Positions 8,307-33,362 of a stretch of 64,000 bases of DNA are shown here, piece after piece (within the stretch, counting starts at the first letter, position 1; the number at the start of each line of letters is the position of its first letter). This DNA is from Deltaproteobacteria bacterium. Lineage in GTDB: Bacteria; Desulfobacterota; Binatia; UBA1149; CAYXZP01. Location of the stretch: contig JAYGCL010000074.1 in NCBI GenBank assembly GCA_046583365.1, positions 670 to 64,669 on the forward strand. The letters are read 5' to 3'. Under the pieces are notes generated by a model. That model saw nothing but the letters and a program-made list of their open reading frames with translations, made no database searches and had not been told where the DNA came from. A program made the position numbers and the translations under genes.

Positions 8307-10124
8307 GTGATGACCAAGCCGGTATTTGTATATGACGGCGACTGTGACTTCTGCCGTGTATGGATAGAGCGCTGGCGTGAGTTGACCGGCGAGGCGGTCG
8401 ACTACCGTCCCTACCAGCAGGCCGCCGCCGATTTTCCCCACATCCCCGCCGAGGATTTTGTGCGGGCGGCCCACCTCGTCGAGCCCGACGGCAGTGTGAG
8501 CGAAGGGGCTGAGGCCGTGTTCAAAGCCCTGGCTCTGGTGGAGGGGAGGGGGTGGTTGCTCAAACTCTACGCGCTCCCCGGCTTTGCTCGTGCAGCCTCG
8601 GCCGTGTACCGGGCGGTGTCCTCCCACCGCCGCACGGCATCACTGCTGACCTCGCTTTTATGGGGTAAGCGGGTAAAGCGTCCACGCTACAGTCTGGTTC
8701 GTTGGGTCTTCCTCAAGGGCATGGGGGTGGTCTACGCCGTAGCTTTTCTGTCGTTGTGGGTGCAGGTGCATGGGCTTATCGGCAGCCGTGGCATCCTGCC
8801 CGTCGGCCCCTGGCTGGAGTCGGTAGGGATGCAGCAGGCCACGGTCTGGCGTTTTGTAAAGGTTCCCACCCTGCTGTGGTTGGGGTCGGGCGATACCGCC
8901 CTCCACTTGCTCTGTGCCGCCGGCCTGCTGTCGTCGTTGGCCCTGGCCGGCGGTCTGTTGCCCCGCCTTGGCGCGCTGGGAGCCTGGCTCTGCTACCTCT
9001 CCCTGTTCACGGCCGGGCGCGTATTCCTGAGCTTTCAGTGGGACATCCTTCTACTCGAGGCTGGATTTCTGGCCTTACTGTTTGCACCCGGCCGCTTGCG
9101 GCCCGGAGTATTCGGGGGCCGTCCCCCCTCTGCTGCGGTTGTATGGCTTCTACGCTGGCTGCTTTTCCGGCTGATGTTTCTCTCCGGGGCCGTCAAACTT
9201 CTAAGCGGCGACGCTGCGTGGTCGGACCTGACGGCGCTCGGCTTTCACTGGCAAACCCAGCCCCTGCCGGTGGCGACGAGTTGGTATCTCCACCAACTCC
9301 CCGGCTGGTCCCAGCAGGTCTTGTGCGCGGGGGTTTTTGTCGTGGAACTGATAGTGCCGTTTTTTGTCTTTGCCCCTCGCCGCCTGCGCCTGCTGGCCTG
9401 TGGAATCTTTTTGTTCTTTCAGGCCTTGATTGTGGCTACCGGCAACTACGCATTCTTCAACCTGCTTACCGTGGTCCTCTGCATCTGCCTGTTAGACGAC
9501 GATTGGTTGGGACATATGTTGCCAAAACGTATGGCGGGTGTGGCAAGCAAGCCTCCTGTTGCGGCACGGTGTTTTACCGCCGCCGCGGCTTTTGCGGCCC
9601 TGGTCTCACTGCTCGTGGTCACGAGTGGCGCCCAGTTCGCGGGCAGGCTGGGTACTCCGCTTCCACCCGCGCTGCGGGGTCTCGTGTCTGCCTTGGCCCC
9701 CTTGCGCCTGACCAACAGCTACGGGCTCTTTTCCGTCATGAGCAGAAAACGTCCCGAGATAATCGTCGAGGGCAGCATGGACGGAAAAACGTGGCAGGCC
9801 TACGAATTTAAGTGGAAGCCCGGTGACCTCCAGGGCCGGCCCCGTATTGTGGCGCCCCACCAGCCGAGGCTGGACTGGCAGATGTGGTTCGCGGCCCTCG
9901 GCAGTTACCACCGTAATCCCTGGTTTGTCAGCTTCGTGGGGCGTCTGCTGGAGGGGTCCCCGCAGGTTCTTGGTCTGCTCGCGAACGATCCTTTTGATGG
10001 CCGTCCTCCGCGCTATGCAAGGGCGGTGGTCTACGATTACAGCTTTTCCAGTCCCGGCGACGATGCCTGGTGGCGGCGGGTACCTTTGCGTCTCTACATG
10101 CCGGTCATGCAACGCCCCGACTGA
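8307..10124 (+). CDS. Fusion protein: N-terminal DCC-family thiol-disulfide oxidoreductase (DUF393) plus lipase maturation factor (LMF)-like membrane domain
   Basis: N-terminal VYDGDCDFCRVWI (DCC CxxC). The C-terminal half has LMF-like motifs (YGLFSVMSRKRPEIIVEGSMDGKTWQAYEFKWKPGD...DWQMWFAALGSY) and multiple TM helices. Confidence 0.75.
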   Translation: MMTKPVFVYDGDCDFCRVWIERWRELTGEAVDYRPYQQAAADFPHIPAEDFVRAAHLVEPDGSVSEGAEAVFKALALVEGRGWLLKLYALPGFARAASAVYRAVSSHRRTASLLTSLLWGKRVKRPRYSLVRWVFLKGMGVVYAVAFLSLWVQVHGLIGSRGILPVGPWLESVGMQQATVWRFVKVPTLLWLGSGDTALHLLCAAGLLSSLALAGGLLPRLGALGAWLCYLSLFTAGRVFLSFQWDILLLEAGFLALLFAPGRLRPGVFGGRPPSAAVVWLLRWLLFRLMFLSGAVKLLSGDAAWSDLTALGFHWQTQPLPVATSWYLHQLPGWSQQVLCAGVFVVELIVPFFVFAPRRLRLLACGIFLFFQALIVATGNYAFFNLLTVVLCICLLDDDWLGHMLPKRMAGVASKPPVAARCFTAAAAFAALVSLLVVTSGAQFAGRLGTPLPPALRGLVSALAPLRLTNSYGLFSVMSRKRPEIIVEGSMDGKTWQAYEFKWKPGDLQGRPRIVAPHQPRLDWQMWFAALGSYHRNPWFVSFVGRLLEGSPQVLGLLANDPFDGRPPRYARAVVYDYSFSSPGDDAWWRRVPLRLYMPVMQRPD

Positions 10125-14926: not shown

Positions 14927-15321
14927 AACAGACTTTTGGAGACCTGCTCGGGTACAAGCACCGCCGCGCCAAGGGCGACAGTGCGGTGGTCGAGTTGGAA
15001 CTCGGCCCCCAACACATGAGCCGTGCCGAGAGGGTCCATGGTGGTGTTCTCTTTTCCCTTCTCGATACGGCCATGGGCCGTGCCGTGATTTCGGCCCTGC
15101 CCGCGGGCAAGGGCTGTGCCACCGTTGAGATGAAGATCAATTTCTTCCGTCCCGTCCAGTCCGGCCGTGTGAGAGCCACAGGTCGTCTGGTCAACCTTAC
15201 GCGTCACACGGCCTACACCGAGGGGGAACTTCACAACGAAGATGGCAAGTTGGTGGCCAAAACCTCGGGCACTTTTTTCATCACGTCTACCCGCAAACAG
15301 TCCGAGCGCGAACGGGTCTAA
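14923..15321 (+). CDS. PaaI/hotdog-fold thioesterase
   Basis: HGGVLFSLLDTAMGRAV is the 4HBT motif. ATGA overlap with aguB. Confidence 0.75.
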   Translation: MKQTFGDLLGYKHRRAKGDSAVVELELGPQHMSRAERVHGGVLFSLLDTAMGRAVISALPAGKGCATVEMKINFFRPVQSGRVRATGRLVNLTRHTAYTEGELHNEDGKLVAKTSGTFFITSTRKQSERERV

Positions 15322-16031
15322 GCGCCGCAGTCAGGCTGGTCGGCCAGCCGGGCCGGGTCGGGGCAGACGACGGTCCTTCCCTTGTCAAAGCGCAGGGCCG
15401 TAGTGCCCAGAGCGGCAGCCTCTTCGGGGTCGTGGGTTACCAGCACACAGGGGATAGTGTGGCGTTTGAGAGTTTCGGCCACGGTAGCGATGAGTTGGTC
15501 ACGACCCTCACGGTCCAGCGAGGTAAAAGGCTCGTCGAGCAGCAGGAGGTCGGGTTGCGGGGCCAGAGCTCTGGCCAGGGCTACCCGCTGGGCTTCCCCT
15601 CCCGAAAGGGTCCCGGGTGTCTTGGCTGCCAAGTCTGCGATCTTGAGTTCCTCCATCAGCTCCATGACCATGGTGTTGCCCCGGCGGCGTTGTTGGCGGG
15701 GCAGTCCGAAGGTGACGTTGTCCAGAACACTGCAAAAGGGAAACAGCGAGCGTTGTTGGGGGAGGTATCCGAAGCCCCGGTCCTGGGGGGGCACCCAGAC
15801 CCCCGTGCTGCTGTCGTATAGAGTGCGTGTACGGGTCTTGATAAGACCGCTGCCGGGACGCAGGTGGCCGGCAAGGGCGCGCAGGCAGGAGGACTTGCCC
15901 GACCCCGATGGTCCAAACAATACCAGTACGCCCGTTTGCAACTCAAAGTCGGCCTCAAGTTGGAAAGGCCGGTGGCTGTCTCCGAGGGTGACGTTGATGG
16001 TTGCCGACAAGGCCGGAGCAGCAGGTATCAT
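15318..16031 (-). CDS. modC: Molybdate/tungstate ABC transporter ATP-binding protein
   Basis: Walker A GPSGSGKSS, signature LSGGEAQRVALARAL, Walker B LLLLDEP. It is the terminal gene of the modABC operon. Confidence 0.8.
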   Translation of the reverse strand: MIPAAPALSATINVTLGDSHRPFQLEADFELQTGVLVLFGPSGSGKSSCLRALAGHLRPGSGLIKTRTRTLYDSSTGVWVPPQDRGFGYLPQQRSLFPFCSVLDNVTFGLPRQQRRRGNTMVMELMEELKIADLAAKTPGTLSGGEAQRVALARALAPQPDLLLLDEPFTSLDREGRDQLIATVAETLKRHTIPCVLVTHDPEEAAALGTTALRFDKGRTVVCPDPARLADQPDCGA

Positions 16032-16708
16032 GTCGATTGTCCTCGGGGGCGGGGAGAGAAACGGGAGGAGAGTATCACCACGAGCAGAGAGAAGGCCGTG
16101 AGACAGAGGACGTAGAAAAGCGCTCGGCCATCGTCGCCGGCCTGGTAGGCGGAAAAAATTTCCAATGGCATGGTGTTGGTGCGTCCGGGGATGTTGCCGG
16201 CAAACATAAGTGTAGCGCCGAACTCACCCAGGGCTCGGGCATAGGCCAGGGCTATGGCGGCCAGTATCCCCCGCCAGGCCGCCGGCAGGATGACGCGAAA
16301 GAACAGAGTCCAGGAGCGCAGGCCCAACGAGCGACCCACCTCTTCGAGTTCCAGGGGAACGCTTTCTATGGCCGGTTGTGCGGTCTTTACCAGGATGGGC
16401 AACGCGACCACGGCGGCCGCTATCACGGCCGCAAACGGAGAAAAGATTATCCGCAGGTCGAAGATACCTTCGAGCCATCGGCCTATAGGGCCCTGCCTTC
16501 CCATGGCCATGACGAGGAAGAACCCGACTACCGAGGGGGGTAGCACCATGGGCAGCAGGATTACGGCATCCACCAGCGGGCGCAGAAAGTAGCGGCGGCG
16601 GGCTTGCAGGTAGACCAGGGCCAGTGCCGGTGGAGTCACGATGAGAATGGCCGCGGTTGCCACTTTGAACGACAGGACCAGGGGGAAGTAGTTGATACCC
16701 TCCGGCAT
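16028..16708 (-). CDS. modB: Molybdate ABC transporter permease
   Basis: ModB-like EAA-loop region (LGEFGATLMFAGNIPGRTNTMP). 4-nt overlaps at both ends. Confidence 0.85.
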   Translation of the reverse strand: MPEGINYFPLVLSFKVATAAILIVTPPALALVYLQARRRYFLRPLVDAVILLPMVLPPSVVGFFLVMAMGRQGPIGRWLEGIFDLRIIFSPFAAVIAAAVVALPILVKTAQPAIESVPLELEEVGRSLGLRSWTLFFRVILPAAWRGILAAIALAYARALGEFGATLMFAGNIPGRTNTMPLEIFSAYQAGDDGRALFYVLCLTAFSLLVVILSSRFSPRPRGQST

Positions 16709-17502
16709 CAGCCGCCCTCTCCATTCAGGCTGGAAATGCTTGGGCCGAAGCCATGCTTGGAAAACAGAGCAACTGCCGTGGGGGTGGTTAAAAAATCGAC
16801 GAACTCCGCAGCCCGCAGTCGTCGCCGTTCCGTCGTTGCTGTGACGGCGGCGACCACTTCTCCCAATGGAGCATCATCGAGGGTGTCCAGGATCACCGCG
16901 TCTTTCATTCCTCTGACGTCGGTTTCGTAGACTATGCCCGCCCTTACTTCGCCCCTGCGTACATAGGCCAATACCATTGCGACGTTCCTGCCCAGCACCA
17001 GGTTGTTTTGTACGGACTCCCAGAGTCCGGCCCGCCTGAGAGCGACTCGGGCGTATTGTCCCACCGGGGCGAGGTGTGGGTCGCCTATGGCCAGGTGCTG
17101 GTCGGCAGCGAGACTGTCCAGTTGGCTCAGGCTTAGCGGTTTGCTGTTTTCTGGTCCGGCCAACACCAGGCGGTTTGTTGCCACCGAGCGTTGCGACTTC
17201 TTATCGGCGAATCCCTCTTTGATAAGGGTCCCGACGGGCAGCGGGGACGCCAGTACTACGGCATCGACCGGGGCTCCACGTCGAACCTGCTGCAGGGCGG
17301 TGCCCGAAGAAGAATAGGTGGCCGTTATGCTTATGTCGGGGTGAGTGGAGACAAAAGACACGATTAACTCGGGCATGATATGGCGCAGGCTCGACGCTGC
17401 GGCAATGACAAGGGGGCGGTCTTGCTGGTGGGAACACGCAGAGACCGCAAATACGATGGCGATGAGGAAAATGTTGGGCGGCCGTTGGTGTAGAGCAGAC
17501 AC
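16708..17502 (-). CDS. modA: Molybdate-binding periplasmic lipoprotein
   Basis: The ModA-like domain begins at PLVIAAASSL...GAPVDAVVLAS and is preceded by the lipoprotein signal ...IFLIAIVFAVSAC. The N-terminal 150 aa of ORF 16708..17955 is low-complexity junk; GTG at 17502 is the proposed start. Confidence 0.75.
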   Translation of the reverse strand: MSALHQRPPNIFLIAIVFAVSACSHQQDRPLVIAAASSLRHIMPELIVSFVSTHPDISITATYSSSGTALQQVRRGAPVDAVVLASPLPVGTLIKEGFADKKSQRSVATNRLVLAGPENSKPLSLSQLDSLAADQHLAIGDPHLAPVGQYARVALRRAGLWESVQNNLVLGRNVAMVLAYVRRGEVRAGIVYETDVRGMKDAVILDTLDDAPLGEVVAAVTATTERRRLRAAEFVDFLTTPTAVALFSKHGFGPSISSLNGEGG

Positions 17503-17527
17503 CGGGCAGGCTCTATCATGGGAGTGC

Positions 17528-17546
17528 TTCCAACGGTACGTTGGAA
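17528..17546. promoter_or_regulatory. Perfect inverted repeat TTCCAACG-gta-CGTTGGAA in the modA / yfcH-like divergent intergenic region (candidate operator)
   Basis: 8-bp arms read directly; located 26-44 nt upstream of the proposed modA start. Confidence 0.3.
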
Positions 17547-17605
17547 CGGCTGTTTTATTGCTCGCCGTTTGAGTCGGGTAGGTTACCGGGCAAGTTAGCG
17601 GGGCT

Positions 17606-18529
17606 ATGAAGATCCTCGTGACCGGGGCGACCGGACTTATAGGCAAGGCTCTGGTGCGCGAACTGCTGGCCGCCGGCGACGAGGTGAGAGTGGTGACTCG
17701 CAACGAGGCGAGGGCCCGCGAGGTCCTCCCTGACCTGTGCCGGTTTTCGACCTGGAACGTCGAGCGACACGAGCTTGACCCCTCCGTGTTTGCGGGAGTT
17801 GATGCCGTTGTGCACCTGGCCGGGGAACCGGTGGCAAAGGGACGCTGGACGCCCAAGCGCAAGAAGGCGATCTTCAGTTCCCGTGTCCGGGGGGCCGACC
17901 TTCTTACCGATACGATTGCGTCTTTGCCCGAAGACGCAAGGCCCGGCACTTTCATTTCCGCCTCCGCGGTGGGTTTTTACGGCGACACCGGCAAGTTTCG
18001 TGTGGATGAAACAGTGTTGAATGGATACGGTTTTCTCTCCGAGGTCTGCCAGGCCTGGGAGGCCGAAGCCCTTGCAGCCAGGAGTCTGGGGATGCGCGCC
18101 GTAGCCATGCGGATAGGCATGGTTTTGTCGAGGGATGGGGGCGTGCTTGAGCGTGTGTTGCCGATTTTTCGTCTTGGCCTGGGTGGCAACCTGGGGTCGG
18201 GACGGCAGTGGGTGGCGTGGATTCATATTGATGATCTCCTATCCCTGTTTCGTTTTGCCCTCAGCGACGCCAGGATTGAGGGGCCGCTGAACGCCACCTC
18301 CCCACGTCCGGTAATGAACGAGGAGTTTACACTGGAACTTGGCCGCGCCCTCGGACGCTCGACATTGTTAGGGGTGCCCGCTTTCGTTCTAAAGATGGTT
18401 TTTGGAGAACAGTCCGAACTTTTTCTTTCCAGCACTCGGGCCGTGCCAAACAAGGCCGCCCATCTCATGTTCGGGTTCCGGTACCCCGACCTGGCCACCG
18501 CATTGGCAGACCTGGTGGGTCATCACTGA
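17606..18529 (+). CDS. TIGR01777/YfcH-like NAD-dependent epimerase family protein (DUF1731 C-terminus)
   Basis: MKILVTGATGLIGKAL Rossmann motif. The C-terminal DUF1731-like region is conserved. Confidence 0.8.
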   Translation: MKILVTGATGLIGKALVRELLAAGDEVRVVTRNEARAREVLPDLCRFSTWNVERHELDPSVFAGVDAVVHLAGEPVAKGRWTPKRKKAIFSSRVRGADLLTDTIASLPEDARPGTFISASAVGFYGDTGKFRVDETVLNGYGFLSEVCQAWEAEALAARSLGMRAVAMRIGMVLSRDGGVLERVLPIFRLGLGGNLGSGRQWVAWIHIDDLLSLFRFALSDARIEGPLNATSPRPVMNEEFTLELGRALGRSTLLGVPAFVLKMVFGEQSELFLSSTRAVPNKAAHLMFGFRYPDLATALADLVGHH

Positions 18530-19927: not shown

Positions 19928-20833
19928 TTGCGGGCCTTGGACCCGGCCTCCGACAAGCAAGAACTCCGCTTTGACCTCTCCGACGGCCTGACCATGGTCG
20001 CCGATGCACGGGGCAATCCCGAAGACCCACCGGTTTTCCTGCTCCACGGTGGGGGCCAGACCCGTCATGCCTGGGGCGGTACCGCGCGCGAGCTGGCGAC
20101 GGCCGGCTTTTACACCCTGTCCTTCGACCTGCGCGGCCACGGTGACAGCGACTGGGATCCCGACGGCGATTACATGATCGAGACCTTTTCCAGGGATCTG
20201 GTGGAGATGGTCGATGGTATGGGTGTGCATCCCTGCGTGGTAGGTGCGTCTTTGGGAGGGCTGACCGCACTGCTGGCCGAAGGCGAGATTCGCCCCGGCC
20301 TCCTTAAAGCGGTGGTGTTTGTGGACATAACCCCGCGCATGACTCCCGAGGGGACCGAACGTATTTTTAAGTTCATGACGGCCAAGCCCGACGGTTTTGT
20401 GTCGTTGGAGGAAGCCGCCGATCATGTGGCCGCATTCATGCCCCACCGTCCTCGCCCGGACGACCACAGTGGCCTGGAGAAGAACCTTCGTCTGGGAGAG
20501 GATGGCCGCTACCGCTGGCATTGGGATCCACAGTTTCTCAATGGGCGCATCAACCGGTCTTATAGCGAGGAGGAAAGGGCGGCATTTCTTGGCCGTCTGA
20601 ACGGGGCCGCCGCTTCCCTGTCCCTCCCCACCATGCTGATACGCGGGCGCATGAGTGACATTGTCAGTGAGGATGCTGCGCGCGAGTTTCTCGAATTGGT
20701 GCCGCATGCGGAATATGTGGACGTCGAGGATGCCGCGCACATGGTTGCGGGTGACCGCAATGATATTTTCACGAAAGCGGTGAAGGATTTTCTGGTTCGG
20801 GCGGTGCCGCGCCCGAGCGTAGACCGTCGTTAG
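19928..20833 (+). CDS. Alpha/beta hydrolase fold protein
   Basis: PVFLLHGGGQTRHAW...GASLGG nucleophile elbow. TTG start per ORF track; exact start uncertain. Confidence 0.8.
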   Translation: MRALDPASDKQELRFDLSDGLTMVADARGNPEDPPVFLLHGGGQTRHAWGGTARELATAGFYTLSFDLRGHGDSDWDPDGDYMIETFSRDLVEMVDGMGVHPCVVGASLGGLTALLAEGEIRPGLLKAVVFVDITPRMTPEGTERIFKFMTAKPDGFVSLEEAADHVAAFMPHRPRPDDHSGLEKNLRLGEDGRYRWHWDPQFLNGRINRSYSEEERAAFLGRLNGAAASLSLPTMLIRGRMSDIVSEDAAREFLELVPHAEYVDVEDAAHMVAGDRNDIFTKAVKDFLVRAVPRPSVDRR

Positions 20834-22731
20834 TTTCCTGGAGCCATCAGTACGGTGGCGAAGCGGGCCTGCCTGTCTCGCCATATCTCAACCACTCGCA
20901 TGCCGCCGCCGGTGGCGAGATTGCGGATCTCATCTTCCGAGTATTTGTAGGAATCTTCGGTGTGGATGCGCTCTCCCTTGCCGAAAACCACCCTCAGGCC
21001 GAGGGCGTTGACCACTACGGTCTGCTGGCGGCAACTTTCAATGTGCATCTCCACCCGCCCCTCGGCCTCCAGATATATGGCCCGGTGTCTGAAGCCATCA
21101 AGGTCGAAGTCGGCGCCGAGTTCACGGTTGATTCGTGCCAGGATGTTGAGGTTGAAACGAGCCGTAACTCCGCTGGCGTCGTCGTAGGCGCGTTCCAGGG
21201 TTTCGCGGTCCTTTCTGAGGTCAACGCCGATAAGAAGACGGTCGGCTGCCGACATCAGCTTGCCGAGGCCGGTCAAAAATTCAGCGGCGGCCTTCCTTTC
21301 AAAATTGCCCACATTGGATCCCAGCCAGGCTATGAGTTTTGCACCGTGGGACAACTCGGCGGTTCTCTGCAGTCCCTCGGTATACTCTGCAGCTACGGGG
21401 ATGATTTCCAGGCCTTCGAATTCGTTTTTCAGTTCAGCCTCGCTCTGGGTCAGAGCCGATGTCGAGATGTCGATGGGTATATAACGACGGAGTCCGCCAG
21501 GTTGTGCCCGGAAGGCCGCGATGAGGTTGTGGGTTTTTCTGGCACTGCCGCTTCCCAATTCGACAATCTCACTGACCCCGTCGCAGAGCGCTGCGATGCT
21601 GGACGAATAGGTTTTTAAAATCTCTTCTTCGCTACGAGTCAGGTAGTACTCGGGCAGTTCACAGATTTCTTCGAAAATTCGTGAACCCTCCTGGTCGTAG
21701 AAAAACCGGCAGGGGAGGCGTTTGGGACTGGCCCCCAGCCCCTGGCCTACGGCTTGGGCAAGTCCGCTGTCCATTGTGTCGTCGGCCGGCAGTAGCTCGG
21801 CAAGAAGGTTGCGCCAGGCCTCTTTTTCTTTTGCCGGCCTGACACGGTCGGCAAGGCGCGAGATTGCACCTTTCAAGGAACGATAGAACAGGGGGTCGTT
21901 TTCTGCACGTAGAATAAGGCGGGCCAGGCCGGCTACGTCGCCGCTTGCAAAGTAGCCGGGGTAGTCGTGGCCCAGTATGCCCAACGAACCGGGTATGCGC
22001 GATGCCAGTATTGGTGTGCCTGTGGCGATGGCCTCCGATATCACATTGGCCCCTCCCTCCAGGCGAGATGGGTGTATGAGCAGGTGGGAGGAGGCCAGGA
22101 CAGCCAGGGCCTCCTGGCTTCCGACCTCGCCAAGCCAGGTGTAGCGGTGGTTTGCCCTTTGCTCGGCCCTGGCTCTTGCCGCCATACCCTCTGCTATGCC
22201 GCGACCGGCTTGCAGCATGGACACCCGCGAGTGGCTTGGCAGCAGGCGCAGGGCCTTGGCCGGCAGGAAGGGGTCTTTGACGGCTCGTAGATGGCCGAGC
22301 ACGCAGGCTTGAAAGCCTGCCGCCCGGCGTTGGGGAATTGGCGGTTTTGCCGACTGGTAGATGACCCTGGTCTTTTTGCGCGCCTCGGGCGGCAGTTCAC
22401 GTGTGGCCTGGGGTTGCAGTACCACCAAGCGGGAGGCCTGGGAGATTACTTGCATGGCTTGGGGGCTGTTGTGGATGTCGTGGTAAAGGTCGGTTCCGGC
22501 CAGACCCACGATCAGTGGCATATCCGGGTTGGCATCTTTGAATCGAAGCGCCGCTGGCGCGCTGCGGTGGGCGTGGAGGGCTATGAGAAGGTCGCAGTCC
22601 TGGCCGTCGTAGTGGTCGGATATGCTCGTTCGGTGGCCCAGTTCCTCAAGAATCCCGGCCCAGCGCAAAGCGGTAACACTATTGCCCCCCGGCACCAGGA
22701 CCCCTCCCGGTGTGACCAGATGTATTTTCAT
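20830..22731 (-). CDS. Fusion protein: N-terminal GT-B glycosyltransferase (SenB/TIGR04348-like) plus C-terminal EgtD-type L-histidine N-alpha-methyltransferase
   Basis: N-terminal MKIHLVTPGGVLVPGGNSVTALRWA...EGGANVISEAIATGTPILAS is a GT4-like C-terminal motif. The C-terminal half carries the full EgtD signature FFYDQEGSRIFEEICELPEYYLTRSEEEIL...ELGSGSARKT...YDDASGVTARFNLNILARINRELGADFDLDGF. The ATG at 22731 overlaps the upstream stop (ATGA); the ORF-track N-terminal extension to 23091 lies inside the egtB-like gene. Confidence 0.75.
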   Translation of the reverse strand: MKIHLVTPGGVLVPGGNSVTALRWAGILEELGHRTSISDHYDGQDCDLLIALHAHRSAPAALRFKDANPDMPLIVGLAGTDLYHDIHNSPQAMQVISQASRLVVLQPQATRELPPEARKKTRVIYQSAKPPIPQRRAAGFQACVLGHLRAVKDPFLPAKALRLLPSHSRVSMLQAGRGIAEGMAARARAEQRANHRYTWLGEVGSQEALAVLASSHLLIHPSRLEGGANVISEAIATGTPILASRIPGSLGILGHDYPGYFASGDVAGLARLILRAENDPLFYRSLKGAISRLADRVRPAKEKEAWRNLLAELLPADDTMDSGLAQAVGQGLGASPKRLPCRFFYDQEGSRIFEEICELPEYYLTRSEEEILKTYSSSIAALCDGVSEIVELGSGSARKTHNLIAAFRAQPGGLRRYIPIDISTSALTQSEAELKNEFEGLEIIPVAAEYTEGLQRTAELSHGAKLIAWLGSNVGNFERKAAAEFLTGLGKLMSAADRLLIGVDLRKDRETLERAYDDASGVTARFNLNILARINRELGADFDLDGFRHRAIYLEAEGRVEMHIESCRQQTVVVNALGLRVVFGKGERIHTEDSYKYSEDEIRNLATGGGMRVVEIWRDRQARFATVLMAPGN

Positions 22732-23879
22732 CAGCCAGTAGCCACGGTGCGAAACCCAGCCATTACATCGCGGCGGTCGGGTGTGTAGTAGTTGCGCAGG
22801 GTGTTGCGCAGCAGCCTTGATCTGGTGGCCCAGCACCCGCCCCGCAGCACCTTGTGGCCCAGAAACCACGGCACCGAATACTCCTTGTAGGGATCCGGAA
22901 TAAATCCGGGGTAAGGGCCGAAATCTGATGCCGTCCATTCCCAGACCTTGCCGCCGTCGAGCAAGCCGGCCGCAGCCGCGGCTTCCCACTCGGCCTCGCC
23001 GGGCAGACGACGGCCGGCCCAACGGCAGTAGGCCTGGGCCTCGTGCCAGTTCACATGGATGACGGGTCTTGACGGGTCCAGTTGCGTCCACTGGTCAAAG
23101 CGGCGGACCAGCCAACCTCGGCCTGGCTCGGACTTCCAGTAAACAGGGTTTTCGGCCGCGGCTGATTTGCGCCACGACCAACCGTCCGGGCTCCACAGCC
23201 GGCGCTGGCGGTAGCCGCCGTCGTCTACAAAGGCGGCAAACTCGGCCTCACTTACGGCCGCGCGCGCAATGGCAAAGGCCGGCAACAGGACTTCGTGGCC
23301 CCACTTCTCATTGTCGAAGACAAACTCTTCACTGCCGTTGGCCCCCAGCATAAATCGCTGTGTTGGCATTGTCGCGTCGCCTTGGACCCCGTGCTTCGGA
23401 GCGGACTCGGAGAGTTGCCTCTGCATTTTGACGGGCGGTGGCGGGTAGGCCAGCGTCTGTCTGGTACAGACGAAGGCCTCATCGTGCATGTCTTCGTGAA
23501 ATACACTGTAGAGGATGAAGTAGAGCAGGCCGCGGGTGGGCTGGCGGCCGCCGAGCAGGTCGAGTACCCGGTCACCAACGGTGGCCACGTACCCAAGGGT
23601 GTCGGAGCGCGATGGCAGCGGCAGGTCCCAACGCAGGTCGTGGGCGATGGCAATGGAGTCCCACAGGGCGTCGCCGTCGGGACGGATTGGCGCCAGCCCG
23701 CAGGCGTGGCGCAGAACCCATTTCTCCTGGAACCAGGCGATGTGGCCCAGTTCCCAGAGCAGCGGGTTGACGGTGGCCAGACGGGGGCCGATGAGTTGAG
23801 CGTCGTCGAGGTCGGCAACCAGAGTGAGGCTCCGTTTGCGGGCGTTCTCGACCCAGCCGGCAAGAGTAGAGGGGTCCAA
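22731..23879 (-). CDS. EgtB-family sulfoxide synthase (DinB_2 plus FGE-sulfatase domains); ergothioneine EgtB or selenoneine SenA-like
   Basis: WELGHIAWFQEKWVLR plus FHEDMHDEAF form a 3-His iron site in the DinB-like domain. The C-terminal FGE-sulfatase domain reads VNWHEAQAYCRWAGRRLPGEAEWE...RGGCWATRSRL. It uses a TTG start. Confidence 0.8.
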   Translation of the reverse strand: MDPSTLAGWVENARKRSLTLVADLDDAQLIGPRLATVNPLLWELGHIAWFQEKWVLRHACGLAPIRPDGDALWDSIAIAHDLRWDLPLPSRSDTLGYVATVGDRVLDLLGGRQPTRGLLYFILYSVFHEDMHDEAFVCTRQTLAYPPPPVKMQRQLSESAPKHGVQGDATMPTQRFMLGANGSEEFVFDNEKWGHEVLLPAFAIARAAVSEAEFAAFVDDGGYRQRRLWSPDGWSWRKSAAAENPVYWKSEPGRGWLVRRFDQWTQLDPSRPVIHVNWHEAQAYCRWAGRRLPGEAEWEAAAAAGLLDGGKVWEWTASDFGPYPGFIPDPYKEYSVPWFLGHKVLRGGCWATRSRLLRNTLRNYYTPDRRDVMAGFRTVATG

Positions 23880-23942
23880 GGCGGCCGGAGTTTAGCATGG
23901 CGGCTTGTTCATCCCAGCCCCGTACTGCTACAAGACCATGCC

Positions 23943-24374
23943 ATGCAGGAAGTAGAGGTAAAGGCCAGCATAAACGGCCGTCGTGAGGAAGTCTGGAATT
24001 TGTATACCGACCATGTCTCCTGGCAGGAGTGGTCGAAGATAGGCAAGGTCCGTCTGGCTTGCGAAGGACAGCCGGCACCCAATGGGGTGGGCTGCGTTCG
24101 TGTCATATCCAATGGCCCGATTTCGGTTGAAGAGAAGATCCTCAGTTTCGATAGTCCCCGGCGTATGACCTACACGATTGTGCGTGGTGGCCTGCCCATA
24201 AAAGACCACCTTGGAGAGGTGGTCTTCAGCGATGAGGGGGAGACCACTCTTATTACCTGGCGCTGCCGCTTCCGTTCCCGGATCCCCGGACTCGGCTTTT
24301 TGTGGAAGGCCATAGTCAACCGTGTGTTCACGCAGACTCTGGATTCTCTCGGCCGCCGTTTTGGACAGCCGTAG
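23943..24374 (+). CDS. SRPBCC (polyketide cyclase/START-like) family protein
   Basis: Only the C-terminal 143 aa of ORF 23295..24374 is plausible (MQEVEVKASINGRREEVWNLYTDHVSWQEW...). The upstream part is antisense to the egtB-like gene. Confidence 0.6.
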   Translation: MQEVEVKASINGRREEVWNLYTDHVSWQEWSKIGKVRLACEGQPAPNGVGCVRVISNGPISVEEKILSFDSPRRMTYTIVRGGLPIKDHLGEVVFSDEGETTLITWRCRFRSRIPGLGFLWKAIVNRVFTQTLDSLGRRFGQP

Positions 24375-24834: not shown

Positions 24835-25137
24835 GTCGGGGAGGGATTGGTGAACTACGTCTATGTAGCCCCCACACGGGTGGGTGGGGTTGAGTTGGAG
24901 GCAGCTGCGAGGCGGTTTTTACCGGCAAAGTTGCTTGGGCTGCAGTATAGCTTATTCCCCAGCCCCGGCTGGGATTTTGCCAGTTGGTACAGTTTCTTTC
25001 GGTCCGGCAGGGCTTTTTGAGGCTCGTTGGGGCTGTTTATCATTGACAACCGGGGCCGGGTTTTTCTAACTTGGACAGTGGTGGAAATGTTTTTCCAAGC
25101 GTTTCCCGGTGTTGACAGGATTCAGGGGAGGAACTCC

Positions 25138-28083
25138 ATGCGCATATCCAAATCGGTGATTTTTACGGTCGGCGCTCTTGCAGCGGTCGTCTTGCTGTCG
25201 GCTGCTCCCGCTTCGGCTGCGGTGACTTCGGCTGCGATGACCAAACTCGAGGCCAAGTGTGCCGGCAAGGTGGCCAAGGGGGCGGCCAAGGTCAGCAACA
25301 CGGTTATCAAGGAGACCATGAAGTGCCGGGACCGGGACATTTCCGGCAAGACCGTGGGGGTCTGCCCCAGTTCTGCCAGTAACGCGAAGGTCGCCAAGGC
25401 CAACGCCAAGCTTGCCAAAATCGCGCGCAAGACCTGTGGGAGTACCTGCAAGTTGACCACCGACCTCTTCTGCTTGGTCAACGCCCATTGCCCACCTCTG
25501 GGGGCGACCGACGAACGCTGTTCGGGAGATACCGGTCTCAAGGTTTTCGACATGAACCGTGTCGGTTTTCCAGGGGCCTTTTGTGACGGAGTCCTGGGCC
25601 ATGAAATCCTCAGTGCCGACGATATCGCCGAATGTGCAGGGTTGGTGGTGACCGGTGCCGCCAACAACCTGGTCACCGCCGTATACGGTGGTACGACCAA
25701 TGCGTCGTCTCTTTCCAAGGGGGCCCAGAAGTGTCTCAGCGGCATAGGCAAGTCGGCCAACAAACTGGTCCAGACTATTTTGAAGGGAACCGTGAAATGT
25801 CGTGGGGCCATTACTAAGGGCAAGATATTCGGCGACCCCGTGACCTGCGCCCTGGCAGACCCCAAGATTGCCGGCAAGATAGCCAAGATTCAGGCCAAGC
25901 TAAGTACAACGTTTTCGTCCAAGTGCAGCGATGAGACCGTGGCCGTCCTCGACCTTTGCGGCAACGGGGTTGGTGGTACCGCCGACGTGGTGGCGGCCGA
26001 AGCTTGTATCCTGGACGCGGCCAGAGAAATTGCCGACGGTCAGGAATTGGCGACGGCCCGAAACTACTCCTCCAAGTCAATCATTGAAGGGGCCTTCCCT
26101 CCGGCTCCCTCTTGCGGTGACGGCATTGTAAACCAACTTGCCGGCTTTTACCTGCGCCTAGGGGAGGAGTGCGACGGTGACGATGATAGCGCGTGTCCGG
26201 GGCTCTGCTTTCCGCCCGGAGACTTGTTCGAGTGCACCTGTGCAAACGTTGCGCGTATTCTCGTAATCAACGACGGCCCGGGCAGTGATAACGACACCGG
26301 TTGGACAGGGCTTGCCCACAACCAACCTATACCCGACCAGGGGGGTTACATCCAGGCTGTAAGCGGCTGCGACTGTGACGACTTTGATGGCTTGAACTGT
26401 GTAGGCAACAGTACCGACAGTGTATGCGACCTTGACGGCTATCAGACGCCGGTTTGTTCCGGGGATCCCCACAGCCAGACGAGCTGTGATCAGCACGGGG
26501 ACAATAACGGCAGAGACACTGACAGCGATTGTTACGTCTGTGACCAGTACAACACCAATGTCGGCGACTCGTGCACGAATTCCAGCGGCTGTCAGGCCCA
26601 GTGCCACGACACGGACTTAAACCCCACCGGCCAGCTCTGTGACCGCCAGAGCGATTGCGATGCCGGCAGTTTCTGCCGTGGACGCTGCGATGACTCCCGG
26701 CGCTGCCTGAAATCCTATAACGGTGGCCCCTTGCCGGTTTCAACCGCCAGTTCAGCGGCGTGTGCGACGCAGGTATTTCGCACCAACACTACCGGAACCG
26801 TCAACATCCAGACCGGTGCAAGTGAAGAGTGGTACGGACTTTTTGCCGGAATCTTTCTTGGCGTCGGTTCCACCTATCCCTGCCCGATCTGCGGCGGTTT
26901 CTGCGATGGCGGTAGCCGCCCCGGTGACACTTGCGAGGGGACCTGCGAGAATAGTGGTGCGTTTTGCCGCTTCGACAGCGATTGTAGTGACGGTGAGGCG
27001 TGCGATGGAGACACTCCGCTCTGTCCCGATGGTGGCACCTGCGTTCTCGAGAACATCTGCCGTTGGGGCCCCAACGAGGGCGAGACCTGTAAGATCGACT
27101 ACCGCCACGCCCAATTCGGGACCATGTCCAACCATTGTCCGCCCGATAAAGGCAAAAATATCTCCGGCGATGGCCTGAGGGCGGAGAATGTGCCCCTGAC
27201 TACTACCGACCGCACCTTTGTGGCTGAACTGCCGTGTTCGTCGCCCGGTTACGAGTTGTTCAGTTGCCACTGTCCAGACGACGGTGGGGCGCTGACAAAG
27301 CCCAACTCCTGCTCCCCGGCTTGCACGGCCGGAGCCGAGGCCGGCCAGGGCTGTGCCGATTCCAACTCAACCACCGGTGGCGGGGACTTTACGGCTTGTG
27401 CCGGTGGTGCCAACGTGGGCAAGGCCTGCGATGAAGACGGCGACTGCCCCGGCAGCTCCTGTTCGGTCAATCCATTGCACTGTAGTGGTGATGCTGCCTA
27501 CGAACATATGCCGTGTTCGGGAGACGGTGACTGTGGCAGTGGCAGTTGTGTGGACGCCTGTCCGCAAGGCCGCTGCGTGCCCCTTTGTGTGGCCAAGGAT
27601 GGCGCTCCATACGAAGGCGTCTGTGCTGCCGGCCCCCCGGTCTTTCACTGCGAGTCGGGCAAGTACACTGGGCGCAACTGCCCGCCCTCGGCTGCGTATT
27701 CCGACTGTCAGGCCACCTGTAGCGGTTCGGGGGTATTGTGTACTGGTGACGAGCAGTGTCCGGCCGGCCAGACCTGTGCGGGCCCCTGCGATACCCACAG
27801 GGAATGTGGTGCCGGCCTCGACGGTATTCTCGGCAACTGGGATGACCTCTTTGGTGCCGGCGCCTGTATTGCCGACGAACGCAGTTGCTTCTCCGCTCAG
27901 ATTCCCGGAACGGGCGGGACTACTTTGAATGGTAAGGGTGATGCCACCAACGTGTTCCAGAACAACCTGACCTGTTACACCTCGACCAACAATGCGCCCA
28001 CCAACAATGTTACGGGCCTGGGTGGGCCGGCCAGGAATCACAAGCACGCGACGCGTATCCCCAATTTCACGTCTTTACCCTAG
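25138..28083 (+). CDS. Large secreted cysteine-rich repeat protein (about 981 aa) with Myxococcus-type cysteine-rich repeats (TIGR02232/DUF4215-like)
   Basis: Signal peptide MRISKSVIFTVGALAAVVLLSAAPASA with GGGGAGG RBS. N-terminal Lys-rich repeats (AKCAGKVAKGAAKVSNTVIKETMKC; AQKCLSGIGKSANKLVQTILKGTVKC). Then CGDGIVNQLAGFYLRLGEECDGDDDSACPGLC repeats and about 100 Cys in C-x-C spacings. A paralog lies at 1..892. Confidence 0.8.
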   Translation: MRISKSVIFTVGALAAVVLLSAAPASAAVTSAAMTKLEAKCAGKVAKGAAKVSNTVIKETMKCRDRDISGKTVGVCPSSASNAKVAKANAKLAKIARKTCGSTCKLTTDLFCLVNAHCPPLGATDERCSGDTGLKVFDMNRVGFPGAFCDGVLGHEILSADDIAECAGLVVTGAANNLVTAVYGGTTNASSLSKGAQKCLSGIGKSANKLVQTILKGTVKCRGAITKGKIFGDPVTCALADPKIAGKIAKIQAKLSTTFSSKCSDETVAVLDLCGNGVGGTADVVAAEACILDAAREIADGQELATARNYSSKSIIEGAFPPAPSCGDGIVNQLAGFYLRLGEECDGDDDSACPGLCFPPGDLFECTCANVARILVINDGPGSDNDTGWTGLAHNQPIPDQGGYIQAVSGCDCDDFDGLNCVGNSTDSVCDLDGYQTPVCSGDPHSQTSCDQHGDNNGRDTDSDCYVCDQYNTNVGDSCTNSSGCQAQCHDTDLNPTGQLCDRQSDCDAGSFCRGRCDDSRRCLKSYNGGPLPVSTASSAACATQVFRTNTTGTVNIQTGASEEWYGLFAGIFLGVGSTYPCPICGGFCDGGSRPGDTCEGTCENSGAFCRFDSDCSDGEACDGDTPLCPDGGTCVLENICRWGPNEGETCKIDYRHAQFGTMSNHCPPDKGKNISGDGLRAENVPLTTTDRTFVAELPCSSPGYELFSCHCPDDGGALTKPNSCSPACTAGAEAGQGCADSNSTTGGGDFTACAGGANVGKACDEDGDCPGSSCSVNPLHCSGDAAYEHMPCSGDGDCGSGSCVDACPQGRCVPLCVAKDGAPYEGVCAAGPPVFHCESGKYTGRNCPPSAAYSDCQATCSGSGVLCTGDEQCPAGQTCAGPCDTHRECGAGLDGILGNWDDLFGAGACIADERSCFSAQIPGTGGTTLNGKGDATNVFQNNLTCYTSTNNAPTNNVTGLGGPARNHKHATRIPNFTSLP

Positions 28084-32399: not shown

Positions 32400-33362
32400 T
32401 CAGTGGGGAGCGAGGTTGGTCAGGATAGCCGTGGCCTGGCTTACCACACGCTCTACGATCTCGGCGCAGGTGGGTATGTCGTTGATGCCTCCGGCGCCCT
32501 GCCCACAAGGCATGCAGTCGAGGTCGGGGTCGAGTTCGATAAGCTCGGGCTGGGCCATTTTCATTGCGTTGTCTCTGAATGTGCTCACGAACTGGGCGGG
32601 GAAAGGCTGAATCTCGTCCGCCCTCTGCTCCCAGGACTGGGCATAGGGGTTGTCGATCACCCGCATGGGTTTGCCCGAGTAGCAACGAGTAATGCGGGTG
32701 TCCTCGTCGTCGATTTCTTTGATGCGGTGTTTGTAGACATCATCGGCATGGGCTTCCTGGGAGGCGATAAAACGGGTGCCCATCCATACCCCCTGGGCTC
32801 CCAGCGAAAGCGCGGCGGCCAGGCCACGGCCATCATAGAGCCCTCCGGCCGCTAGGACGGGGGCGCTCACGGCGTCAACGATTTGCGGGACCAGGGCCAT
32901 GCCGCCGATTTTTCCAGTGTGGCCGCCGGCCTCGGTACCCTGGGCCACCAGAACGTCGACGCCGGCTTCTTCGGCGCGCCGGGCGTGTTTGACCTTGCCG
33001 CAGAGGTTGAAGACCTTGAGGCCTGCCTCGTGGCACATTTCGATGACCGGGCCGGGAACGCCCAGGCCGGCTACGAAGGCAGCCACGCCCTCTTCGCAGA
33101 TGACCTTGGCTTGGGCGGGAACCTGGTCTGGAAGTGCGGTAAGGACGTCGACACCGAAAGGTTTGTCGGTGAGCCGCCGGACCTCCTGGATTTGTTCGCG
33201 GATCCAGTCCGGGTCCATGCCGGCCGCTCCTATGCAGCCAAAGCCCCCGGCTTCGGACACCGCCGCGCAGACCTCGGCGTAGGCCACTCCGCCCATGCCG
33301 GCCAGGAATACCGGGTGCTCAATACCCAGGGTTTCGCACAGTGGGGTTGTCAGTGTGTCCAT
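32400..33362 (-). CDS. Nitronate monooxygenase / NAD(P)H-dependent flavin oxidoreductase (NMO family)
   Basis: HPVFLAGMGGVAYAEV...GGFGCIG is the NMO/2-nitropropane dioxygenase pattern. Confidence 0.8.
   Translation of the reverse strand: MDTLTTPLCETLGIEHPVFLAGMGGVAYAEVCAAVSEAGGFGCIGAAGMDPDWIREQIQEVRRLTDKPFGVDVLTALPDQVPAQAKVICEEGVAAFVAGLGVPGPVIEMCHEAGLKVFNLCGKVKHARRAEEAGVDVLVAQGTEAGGHTGKIGGMALVPQIVDAVSAPVLAAGGLYDGRGLAAALSLGAQGVWMGTRFIASQEAHADDVYKHRIKEIDDEDTRITRCYSGKPMRVIDNPYAQSWEQRADEIQPFPAQFVSTFRDNAMKMAQPELIELDPDLDCMPCGQGAGGINDIPTCAEIVERVVSQATAILTNLAPH

Follow-up and report, generated by a model that had tools for sequence, protein, structure and literature searches.

What does a bacterium make with an EgtB-like enzyme whose gene adjoins another one, encoding a glycosyltransferase fused to a complete histidine methyltransferase? 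The question is raised by a locus in a stretch of 64,000 nucleotides (hereafter the window) from contig JAYGCL010000074.1 of a metagenome-assembled genome (MAG) recorded at NCBI as 'Deltaproteobacteria bacterium'. An earlier reading, made from the letters of this DNA (the sequence-only reading), had described two co-directional genes here and had offered two explanations, a selenoneine locus of SenA/SenB type or a non-canonical ergothioneine locus. Both open reading frames (ORFs) were confirmed on the minus strand, and our analysis makes it very likely that the two, senA and after it senB::egtD, are an operon for selenoneine biosynthesis. The first explanation was borne out by scores on the curated SenA and SenB models and by a SenA composite motif, while the second was set aside, as the upstream protein fails the EgtB cut-off and has its thiol-binding residues replaced as in SenA. 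All chemistry assigned to the operon below would follow, by homology, that of the reconstituted Variovorax paradoxus pathway. The features of the locus are as follows.

22731..23879, minus strand: senA, 382 aa, a short form starting with TTG, encoding a predicted selenoneine synthase (a non-heme-iron selenoxide synthase)
22729..22733, minus strand: TGATG junction of the senA stop and the senB::egtD start, from reading the sequence
20830..22731, minus strand: senB::egtD, a bifunctional gene, 633 aa plus stop
21793..22731, minus strand: predicted SenB (selenosugar synthase, GT-B) domain, residues 1-313, from matches to SenB structure sequences and from functional residues
21769..21792, minus strand: inter-domain hinge, residues ~314-321 (LPADDTMD), including Met318, from linker length and the predicted local distance difference test (pLDDT) of an AlphaFold2 model
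20833..21768, minus strand: predicted EgtD (histidine N-alpha-trimethyltransferase) domain, residues 322-633, from PF10017 and matches to EgtD structure sequences
23880..23942, no strand assigned: 63-bp spacer from senA to a divergent SRPBCC gene, presumed to be the promoter region of the operon, from reading the sequence

The product of the upstream gene (gene 1) aligns with the SenA model NF041186 almost from end to end (residues 3-380 against model positions 5-382 of 382) and scores 502.7 bits, over the curated equivalog cut-off of 420 bits. On the EgtB model TIGR03440 it reaches 315.2 bits, under the cut-off of 360, and this comparison of the two models, which the sequence-only reading had proposed, was decided in favor of SenA. 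The Pfam domains DinB_2 (PF12867) and FGE-sulfatase (PF03781) were both found at scores well outside chance, as were the motifs WELGHIAWFQ and HEDMHDEA, in agreement with the earlier description of an EgtB-type gene with a DinB-like 3-His site; in the alignments, H46, H128 and H132 fall on the iron ligands of SenA and of EgtB. The protein is 100% identical to NCBI MFP6626836.1, to which the Prokaryotic Genome Annotation Pipeline already gives the name 'selenoneine synthase SenA'.

Previous work distinguished the SenA composite motif, xNEH--HRHxHYYN(F/Y)(F/Y)R, from those of OvsA (..YMQAYR) and of type I EgtB (SDH--RRHQH..NWD) (PMC11030361), and reported that all SenA proteins carry His in place of EgtB Arg87 and Phe or Tyr in place of EgtB Asp416 (10.1101/2022.04.13.486033). 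Reading the corresponding positions off alignments to SenA, OvsA and M. thermoresistibile EgtB, we obtained N38 E43 H46 / H80 R83 / H128 M131 H132 / Y331 Y334 / N363 Y364 Y365 R369. This is the full SenA motif, and neither the OvsA nor the EgtB-I motif fits. Relative to EgtB-I, S/D becomes N/E, R87 becomes H80, Q137 becomes M131 and W415/D416 becomes Y364/Y365, while the hercynine-specific Y334, N363 and Y364 stand where OvsA has M, Q and A. By model and motif, gene 1 is thus a predicted SenA, and membership in the OvsA or EgtB groups fails on the features tested.

The second gene encodes two enzymes in one 633-aa product, as the sequence-only reading had claimed for a GT-B::EgtD fusion, since the TIGR04348 (SenB) and TIGR03438 (EgtD) cut-offs are both passed. 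Residues 3-311 cover model positions 1-309 of 310 of TIGR04348 with 358.9 bits (cut-off 300), and the next-best GT4 model gives 106 bits; a contest between SenB and generic GT4 families over the N-terminal ~310 residues, which had also been suggested, is therefore clearly won by SenB. Pfam places a Glycos_transf_1 domain at residues 141-285, and the sequences of the SenB crystal structures 8k5u, 8jjn and 8fbx match with 179-184 bits. Mutagenesis and structural work on SenB identified N20, T23, H58, R61, T83, T85, D86, R155, K158, E231 (in EGGAHV) and E239 as functional residues (PMC10891094). Ten of these eleven are kept (N17, T20, H53, R56, T80, D81, R149, K152, E225 and E233), among which K152, R149, H53, D81, E225 and E233 are invariant across the fusion family. 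Judged by its sequence, the SenB half is a complete predicted selenosugar synthase.

The C-terminal half shows the same completeness. Residues 325-628 score 359.6 bits on TIGR03438 (cut-off 290.9), Methyltransf_33 (PF10017) spans residues 325-629 (positions 2-302 of 304, E = 7e-108), and the EgtD structures 7scf and 4pim match with 222-231 bits. The EgtD motif FFYDQEGSRIFEEICELPEYY quoted earlier was confirmed. Alignment to 7scf and 4uy6 further revealed the conserved EgtD blocks FYD..GS..F..I..LPEYY.TR, LGS.VGN, AYDD..GVTA.FN.N and TE.S.KY, which we take to be substrate-binding. The gene 2 product is identical to NCBI MFP6626835.1, a protein named only 'L-histidine N(alpha)-methyltransferase'.

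An AlphaFold2 model of the fusion, built on 35 fusion sequences, has two fully folded domains with a mean pLDDT of 91.6 and a predicted template-modelling score (pTM) of 0.56; pLDDT falls below 50 only at residues 316-320. Gene 2 is therefore a complete SenB and a complete EgtD on a flexible hinge of ~5 residues. Between the anchor columns the window linker measures 39 residues, against a family median of 55, and is among the shortest. Most fusion linkers retain the natural N-terminus of EgtD (RFTL(I/V)...FA.DV), whereas that of the window does not. Within the hinge, just before the EgtD core, lies Met318 (21778..21780; ..PADDT-M-DSGLAQAVGQGL..). From its position, this residue may be what is left of the start codon of an ancestral egtD, and it may in principle allow separate translation of EgtD.

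The two genes meet at the sequence GGC TGA TGA AA, in which base 22731 is common to the TGA of senA (22733..22731) and the ATG of senB::egtD (22731..22729). The ATGA overlap of four bases described in the sequence-only reading has to be corrected to this single shared base in TGATG; a 4-base stop/start overlap is found instead in the relatives L001 and L089 and in the P0046 contig. As read from the sequence, the TGATG overlap suggests translational coupling of senB::egtD to SenA. At the other end, senA starts with TTG at 23879 and cannot be extended because an in-frame TAA lies 15 nt upstream. The NCBI annotation gives the same 382-aa and 633-aa products.

The proposed pathway would run in four steps. 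The EgtD half would use S-adenosylmethionine to trimethylate histidine to hercynine. The SenB half would transfer the sugar of a uridine diphosphate sugar (N-acetylglucosamine or glucose) onto selenophosphate, with hydrolysis of the Se-P bond yielding a 1-seleno-sugar. SenA, with Fe(II) and O2, would then couple the selenosugar to C2 of the hercynine imidazole as a selenoxide, which would eliminate spontaneously to selenoneine. The fusion would thus place the makers of both SenA co-substrates on one polypeptide in 1:1 stoichiometry, and the overlapping stop and start would couple its translation to that of SenA. With such a senB::egtD cassette, a separate ergothioneine pathway would no longer be needed for hercynine. 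Selenophosphate would come from a SelD/SenC presumably encoded elsewhere in the genome. Because two complete domains are joined by a flexible hinge of ~5 residues, co-expression and co-localization are to be expected rather than a channel.

Is the fusion genuine, and how widespread is it? Besides the source record, the same gene pair is present on a Logan contig of independent origin (L092), ENA contigs encode both proteins as well, and an identical or 99%-identical 633-aa product was found in four independent data sets. Since the gene pair recurs in independent assemblies, an assembly artefact is excluded. An exact-sequence look-up of the window fusion returned no match, and the identical NCBI protein (P0243) was found via a cluster listing. 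Among the best 120 homolog clusters, 89 contain SenB and EgtD domains together, always in the order SenB then EgtD. A near-full SenB domain is present in 81 of these, which come from several phyla and give at least 81 full fusion clusters in public data; the homologs are 39-57% identical to the window fusion. By source name they include MAGs of NC10, Acidobacteria and Planctomycetes, and they are annotated either as 'TIGR04348 family glycosyltransferase' or with the methyltransferase name.

Within the SenB family as a whole, represented by 590 sequences at 50% identity (E <= 1e-30), fusions account for 4-5 of the best 150 representatives, about 3%. Among 80 listed metagenomic loci of the same SenB clade there is no fusion, and a contig scan that picked EgtD-domain patterns only gave 80 plain EgtD loci, again with no fusions. 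Two unfused loci are instructive. One of the 80 SenB-clade loci (L158) is a senA-senB-egtD operon with 7 nt from the senB stop to the egtD start, and loss of the stop codon in an operon of this kind is an obvious route to the window architecture. The EgtD-pattern scan yielded a compact cluster of senB, egtD, selD and senA in Polynucleobacter meluiroseus (L042). A neighbor-joining tree of 222 SenB domains places the fusions in 20 separate groups. In a thinned tree of 151 sequences, bootstrap values of 70% or more are confined to 10 of 148 splits, all of them tip groups of 2-3 sequences; the SenB-domain tree is thus essentially unsupported and does not distinguish a single origin of the fusion from several. 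The different linker types hint weakly, at the level of sequence, at more than one fusion event.

The sequence-only reading had regarded the architecture as undescribed. This holds insofar as no description of the fusion was found in the searchable literature, including the SenB and SenA structure papers (a supplementary figure of the Nature paper lay outside the search), but not for public data, where at least 81 fusion clusters exist and SenA is already named in the record. Among the findings that would refute it, the sequence-only reading had listed fusions of glycosyltransferase and EgtD proving to be a common, already annotated ergothioneine variant; this applies only weakly, the fusions being recurrent but annotated only automatically under the name of one domain.

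A SenA-type gene adjoins the fusion in six of seven other fusion contexts, and SenA motifs were present in all five fusion-adjacent genes with available DNA. At L004/L005 (8001..9950, Planctomycetota lineage), the ±8 kb around SenB::EgtD contain no SenA-type gene, so that fusing two of the three activities need not keep the third one linked. Other genes recur beside the fusions. On two unrelated contigs (L002 2482..4748 and L091 8731..10955), an ABC ATPase gene and a fused OpuAC/permease gene adjoin senA-senB::egtD. We take this pair to have the architecture of a betaine-type (EgtUV-like) transporter, and it could be a transporter of selenoneine or hercynine. Two independent fusion loci have a gene for a Kelch-repeat beta-propeller upstream of senA, directly in one (L002 4819..6573) and with a Meth_synt_2 gene in between in the other (L089 5761..7383).

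Several observations weigh against a selenoneine operon. A tblastn search of the 64-kb window with E. coli K-12 SelD found no selD, the best match having an E value of 0.09. In the selenophosphate pocket, T83 of V. paradoxus SenB is replaced by A78, and the sugar-binding motif reads EGGANV rather than EGGAHV throughout the clade. Gene 1 lacks, at about residues 306-310, a segment of ~51 aa in the FGE domain (..FPWG..AN..G..Q(M/L).GNVWEWT) that its ten closest homologs possess. Lastly, the fused SenB-EgtD family is known from sequence alone. As for the pocket, the V. paradoxus T83A mutant was impaired but active (PMC10891094). Truncation of or damage to gene 1 at the 51-aa gap was ruled out by the V. 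paradoxus SenA and the 382-position NCBIfam model, which are equally short at this site, and gene 1 consequently represents a known short form. The SenA family has both long and short forms, possibly as a result of independent deletions.

The missing selD has a wider context. The weak match at 33015-33179 lies in the ORF of a nitronate monooxygenase and was rejected as a SelD candidate, so that the earlier statement that selD and senC are absent from the window is upheld; no tRNA-Sec was found in the window either. An AIRS-family gene (selD) was found within ±8-10 kb in none of the seven other fusion contexts. Among the 80 listed loci of the same SenB clade, most have senA directly upstream of senB, and one (L153) has selD nearby. 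In the founding survey, egtB and selD occurred within 5 kb of only 827 of 2,353 TIGR04348 genes (10.1101/2022.04.13.486033). The canonical sen biosynthetic gene cluster is recognized by an egtB homolog, a TIGR04348 gene and selD within 5 kb; the window locus, having no co-localized selD, lies outside those 827 clusters. The absence of a linked selD is thus the usual state for this SenB clade and not peculiar to the window.

The same absence would also be expected of a selenium-independent variant, a route to a 2-substituted hercynine in organisms without selenophosphate synthetase, whose SenB-like domain uses sulfur or another acceptor. The product would be ergothioneine, made via a thiosugar, or an S-glycosyl hercynine derivative such as a stable S-glycosyl sulfoxide. 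The altered pocket threonine and the EGGANV motif fit this proposal too, but we consider it improbable. At the positions of the thiol-binding Arg and Asp of EgtB, gene 1 has exactly the substitutions of SenA. Thioglucose is used only very poorly by SenA, the sulfoxide formed from it does not eliminate to ergothioneine, and SenC makes no thiophosphate from sulfide. To our knowledge, no biological source of thiophosphate exists. Moreover, an unlinked selD is expected anyway from the counts of the founding survey, and no EgtC- or EgtE-like gene lies near the operon.

A different assignment of gene 1, as an OvsA-type (ovoselenol) or ordinary EgtB enzyme, could appeal to its score of 315 bits on the EgtB model and to the solved structures, among which OvsA 8ux5 is its top phmmer match (267 bits, against 254 for V. 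paradoxus SenA). However, 8ux5 is the engineered OvsA-M401Y/Q430N/A431F (OvsA-YNF), converted to SenA specificity (PMC11030361), and the advantage of this mutant over wild-type OvsA in its score with gene 1 comes precisely from the positions that were mutated. Together with the residues Y334/N363/Y364, the EgtB and SenA scores on opposite sides of their cut-offs and the operon linkage to an EgtD fusion, when most OvsA organisms lack egtD, this leaves the assignment with hardly any credit. We give equally little to the fusion being an error of sequencing or assembly that removed the senB stop, or a decaying pseudogene. A single error in an operon like L158, with its 7-nt spacer, could mimic a fusion, and the window linker is unusually short. 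Nevertheless, four independent data sets contain the same product, the diverged fusions (at least 81) are spread over several phyla, and both domains run from end to end on their models with intact catalytic residues and high pLDDT. A senA-senB::egtD operon for selenoneine is the explanation that we retain.

The surroundings of the operon are unrelated in function. A 143-aa SRPBCC/Polyketide_cyc2 protein (PF10604 match) is encoded divergently from senA at 23943..24374 on the plus strand, inside a longer mechanical ORF (23295..24374), and the 3' end of the operon is overlapped by a convergent alpha/beta hydrolase gene. A scan of the operon surroundings for promoters and terminators gave nothing above background, with no sigma-70-like consensus in the 63-bp spacer, and an Rfam scan of the window yielded two tRNAs and no other element, with none around the operon; for these reasons, we can only infer the promoter role of the spacer. 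Further neighbors comprise a LipE-like esterase, an oxidoreductase, a ModABC transporter and a hotdog thioesterase, and the more distant window genes are housekeeping genes (UvrB, UvrC, HisRS, AspRS, ValRS, IspH).

The transporter is of the ModABC oxyanion type (ATPase, ModB and ModA; 15318..17955, minus strand) and lies ~3 kb past the 3' end of the operon; the match of the ModA ORF begins only at residue 164, and its start was probably miscalled in the ORF list. The founding sen paper noted a 'putative selenate transporter' near many sen clusters (10.1101/2022.04.13.486033). For the window transporter we set this role aside, since three unrelated genes lie between it and the operon and the models that it passes are those of molybdate ModA and ModB. 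Elsewhere, a 1018-aa ORF at 25027..28083 (plus strand) encodes a secreted, extremely Cys/Gly/Asp-rich product with no Pfam or NCBIfam match; its true start is probably the Met of MRISKSVIFTVGALAAVVLLSAAPASA, a signal peptide. The 605-aa protein encoded at 8307..10124 (plus strand) has a DCC1-like thiol-disulfide oxidoreductase domain at its N terminus together with LMF1/LMF1_C lipase-maturation-factor domains.

Taken together, the locus is a compact, uncommon and apparently undescribed architectural variant of a pathway known since 2022. The pathway itself is not new: both enzyme families, the co-localization of egtD and the SenA name in the public record are already known, and the fusion leaves our understanding of selenoneine chemistry unchanged. 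Its value lies elsewhere. The fusion is 'Rosetta-stone' evidence that the supplies of hercynine and of selenosugar are functionally tied in selenoneine producers. A minimal two-gene cassette, complemented by any SelD, should suffice for selenoneine production and could be useful for metabolic engineering and genome mining. The fused proteins also expose an annotation blind spot, as each carries the name of one domain only. Surveys that require a linked selD miss the whole class of senA plus senB::egtD loci, and selenoneine capacity is therefore probably under-counted in lineages of soil, groundwater and sediment, namely Acidobacteriota, Planctomycetota, NC10 and 'Deltaproteobacteria'.

The closest known system is the senABC cluster of Variovorax paradoxus and Amycolatopsis palatopharyngis (Kayrouz et al. 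2022, preprint 10.1101/2022.04.13.486033), a subset of such clusters having egtD co-localized (10.1101/2022.04.13.486033). The window operon shares with it a SenA and a SenB that are orthologous by curated models, the same active-site residues, adjacent senA and senB genes, and reliance on hercynine from EgtD. Similarity to the V. paradoxus enzymes is moderate (the crystal-structure sequences give 254 bits for SenA and 179 bits for SenB), and the window SenB differs in having EGGANV for EGGAHV and Ala at the Thr83 position. Unlike senABC, the window has a covalent fusion in which egtD joins senB at its 3' end, and senC/selD is absent from the cluster and from the 64 kb around it. Of the unfused loci described above, L158 has the gene set and the gene order of the window, and L042 has the same gene set plus selD, but both encode separate polypeptides.

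Two further systems offer partial parallels. The ovs cluster for ovoselenol consists of OvsA, OvsM and SenB/SenC (PMC11030361), and it resembles the window operon in combining a selenosugar cassette with a closely related non-heme-iron selenoxide synthase. OvsA, however, takes histidine rather than hercynine, has M/Q/A at the three specificity positions and belongs to hosts mostly without egtD, whereas the enzyme in the window carries Y/N/Y and comes with a linked EgtD. In fungal Egt1 of the ergothioneine pathway, an EgtD-like methyltransferase and an EgtB-like sulfoxide synthase are naturally fused. As in Egt1, whose fusion has been discussed before (PMC4020840), a hercynine-forming methyltransferase is joined in the window to an enzyme of the same histidine-betaine pathway. 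Egt1 joins two consecutive steps of the sulfur pathway, EgtD and then EgtB, whereas the window fusion joins EgtD to the predicted maker of the selenosugar and leaves the enzyme that would form the C-Se bond as a separate protein.

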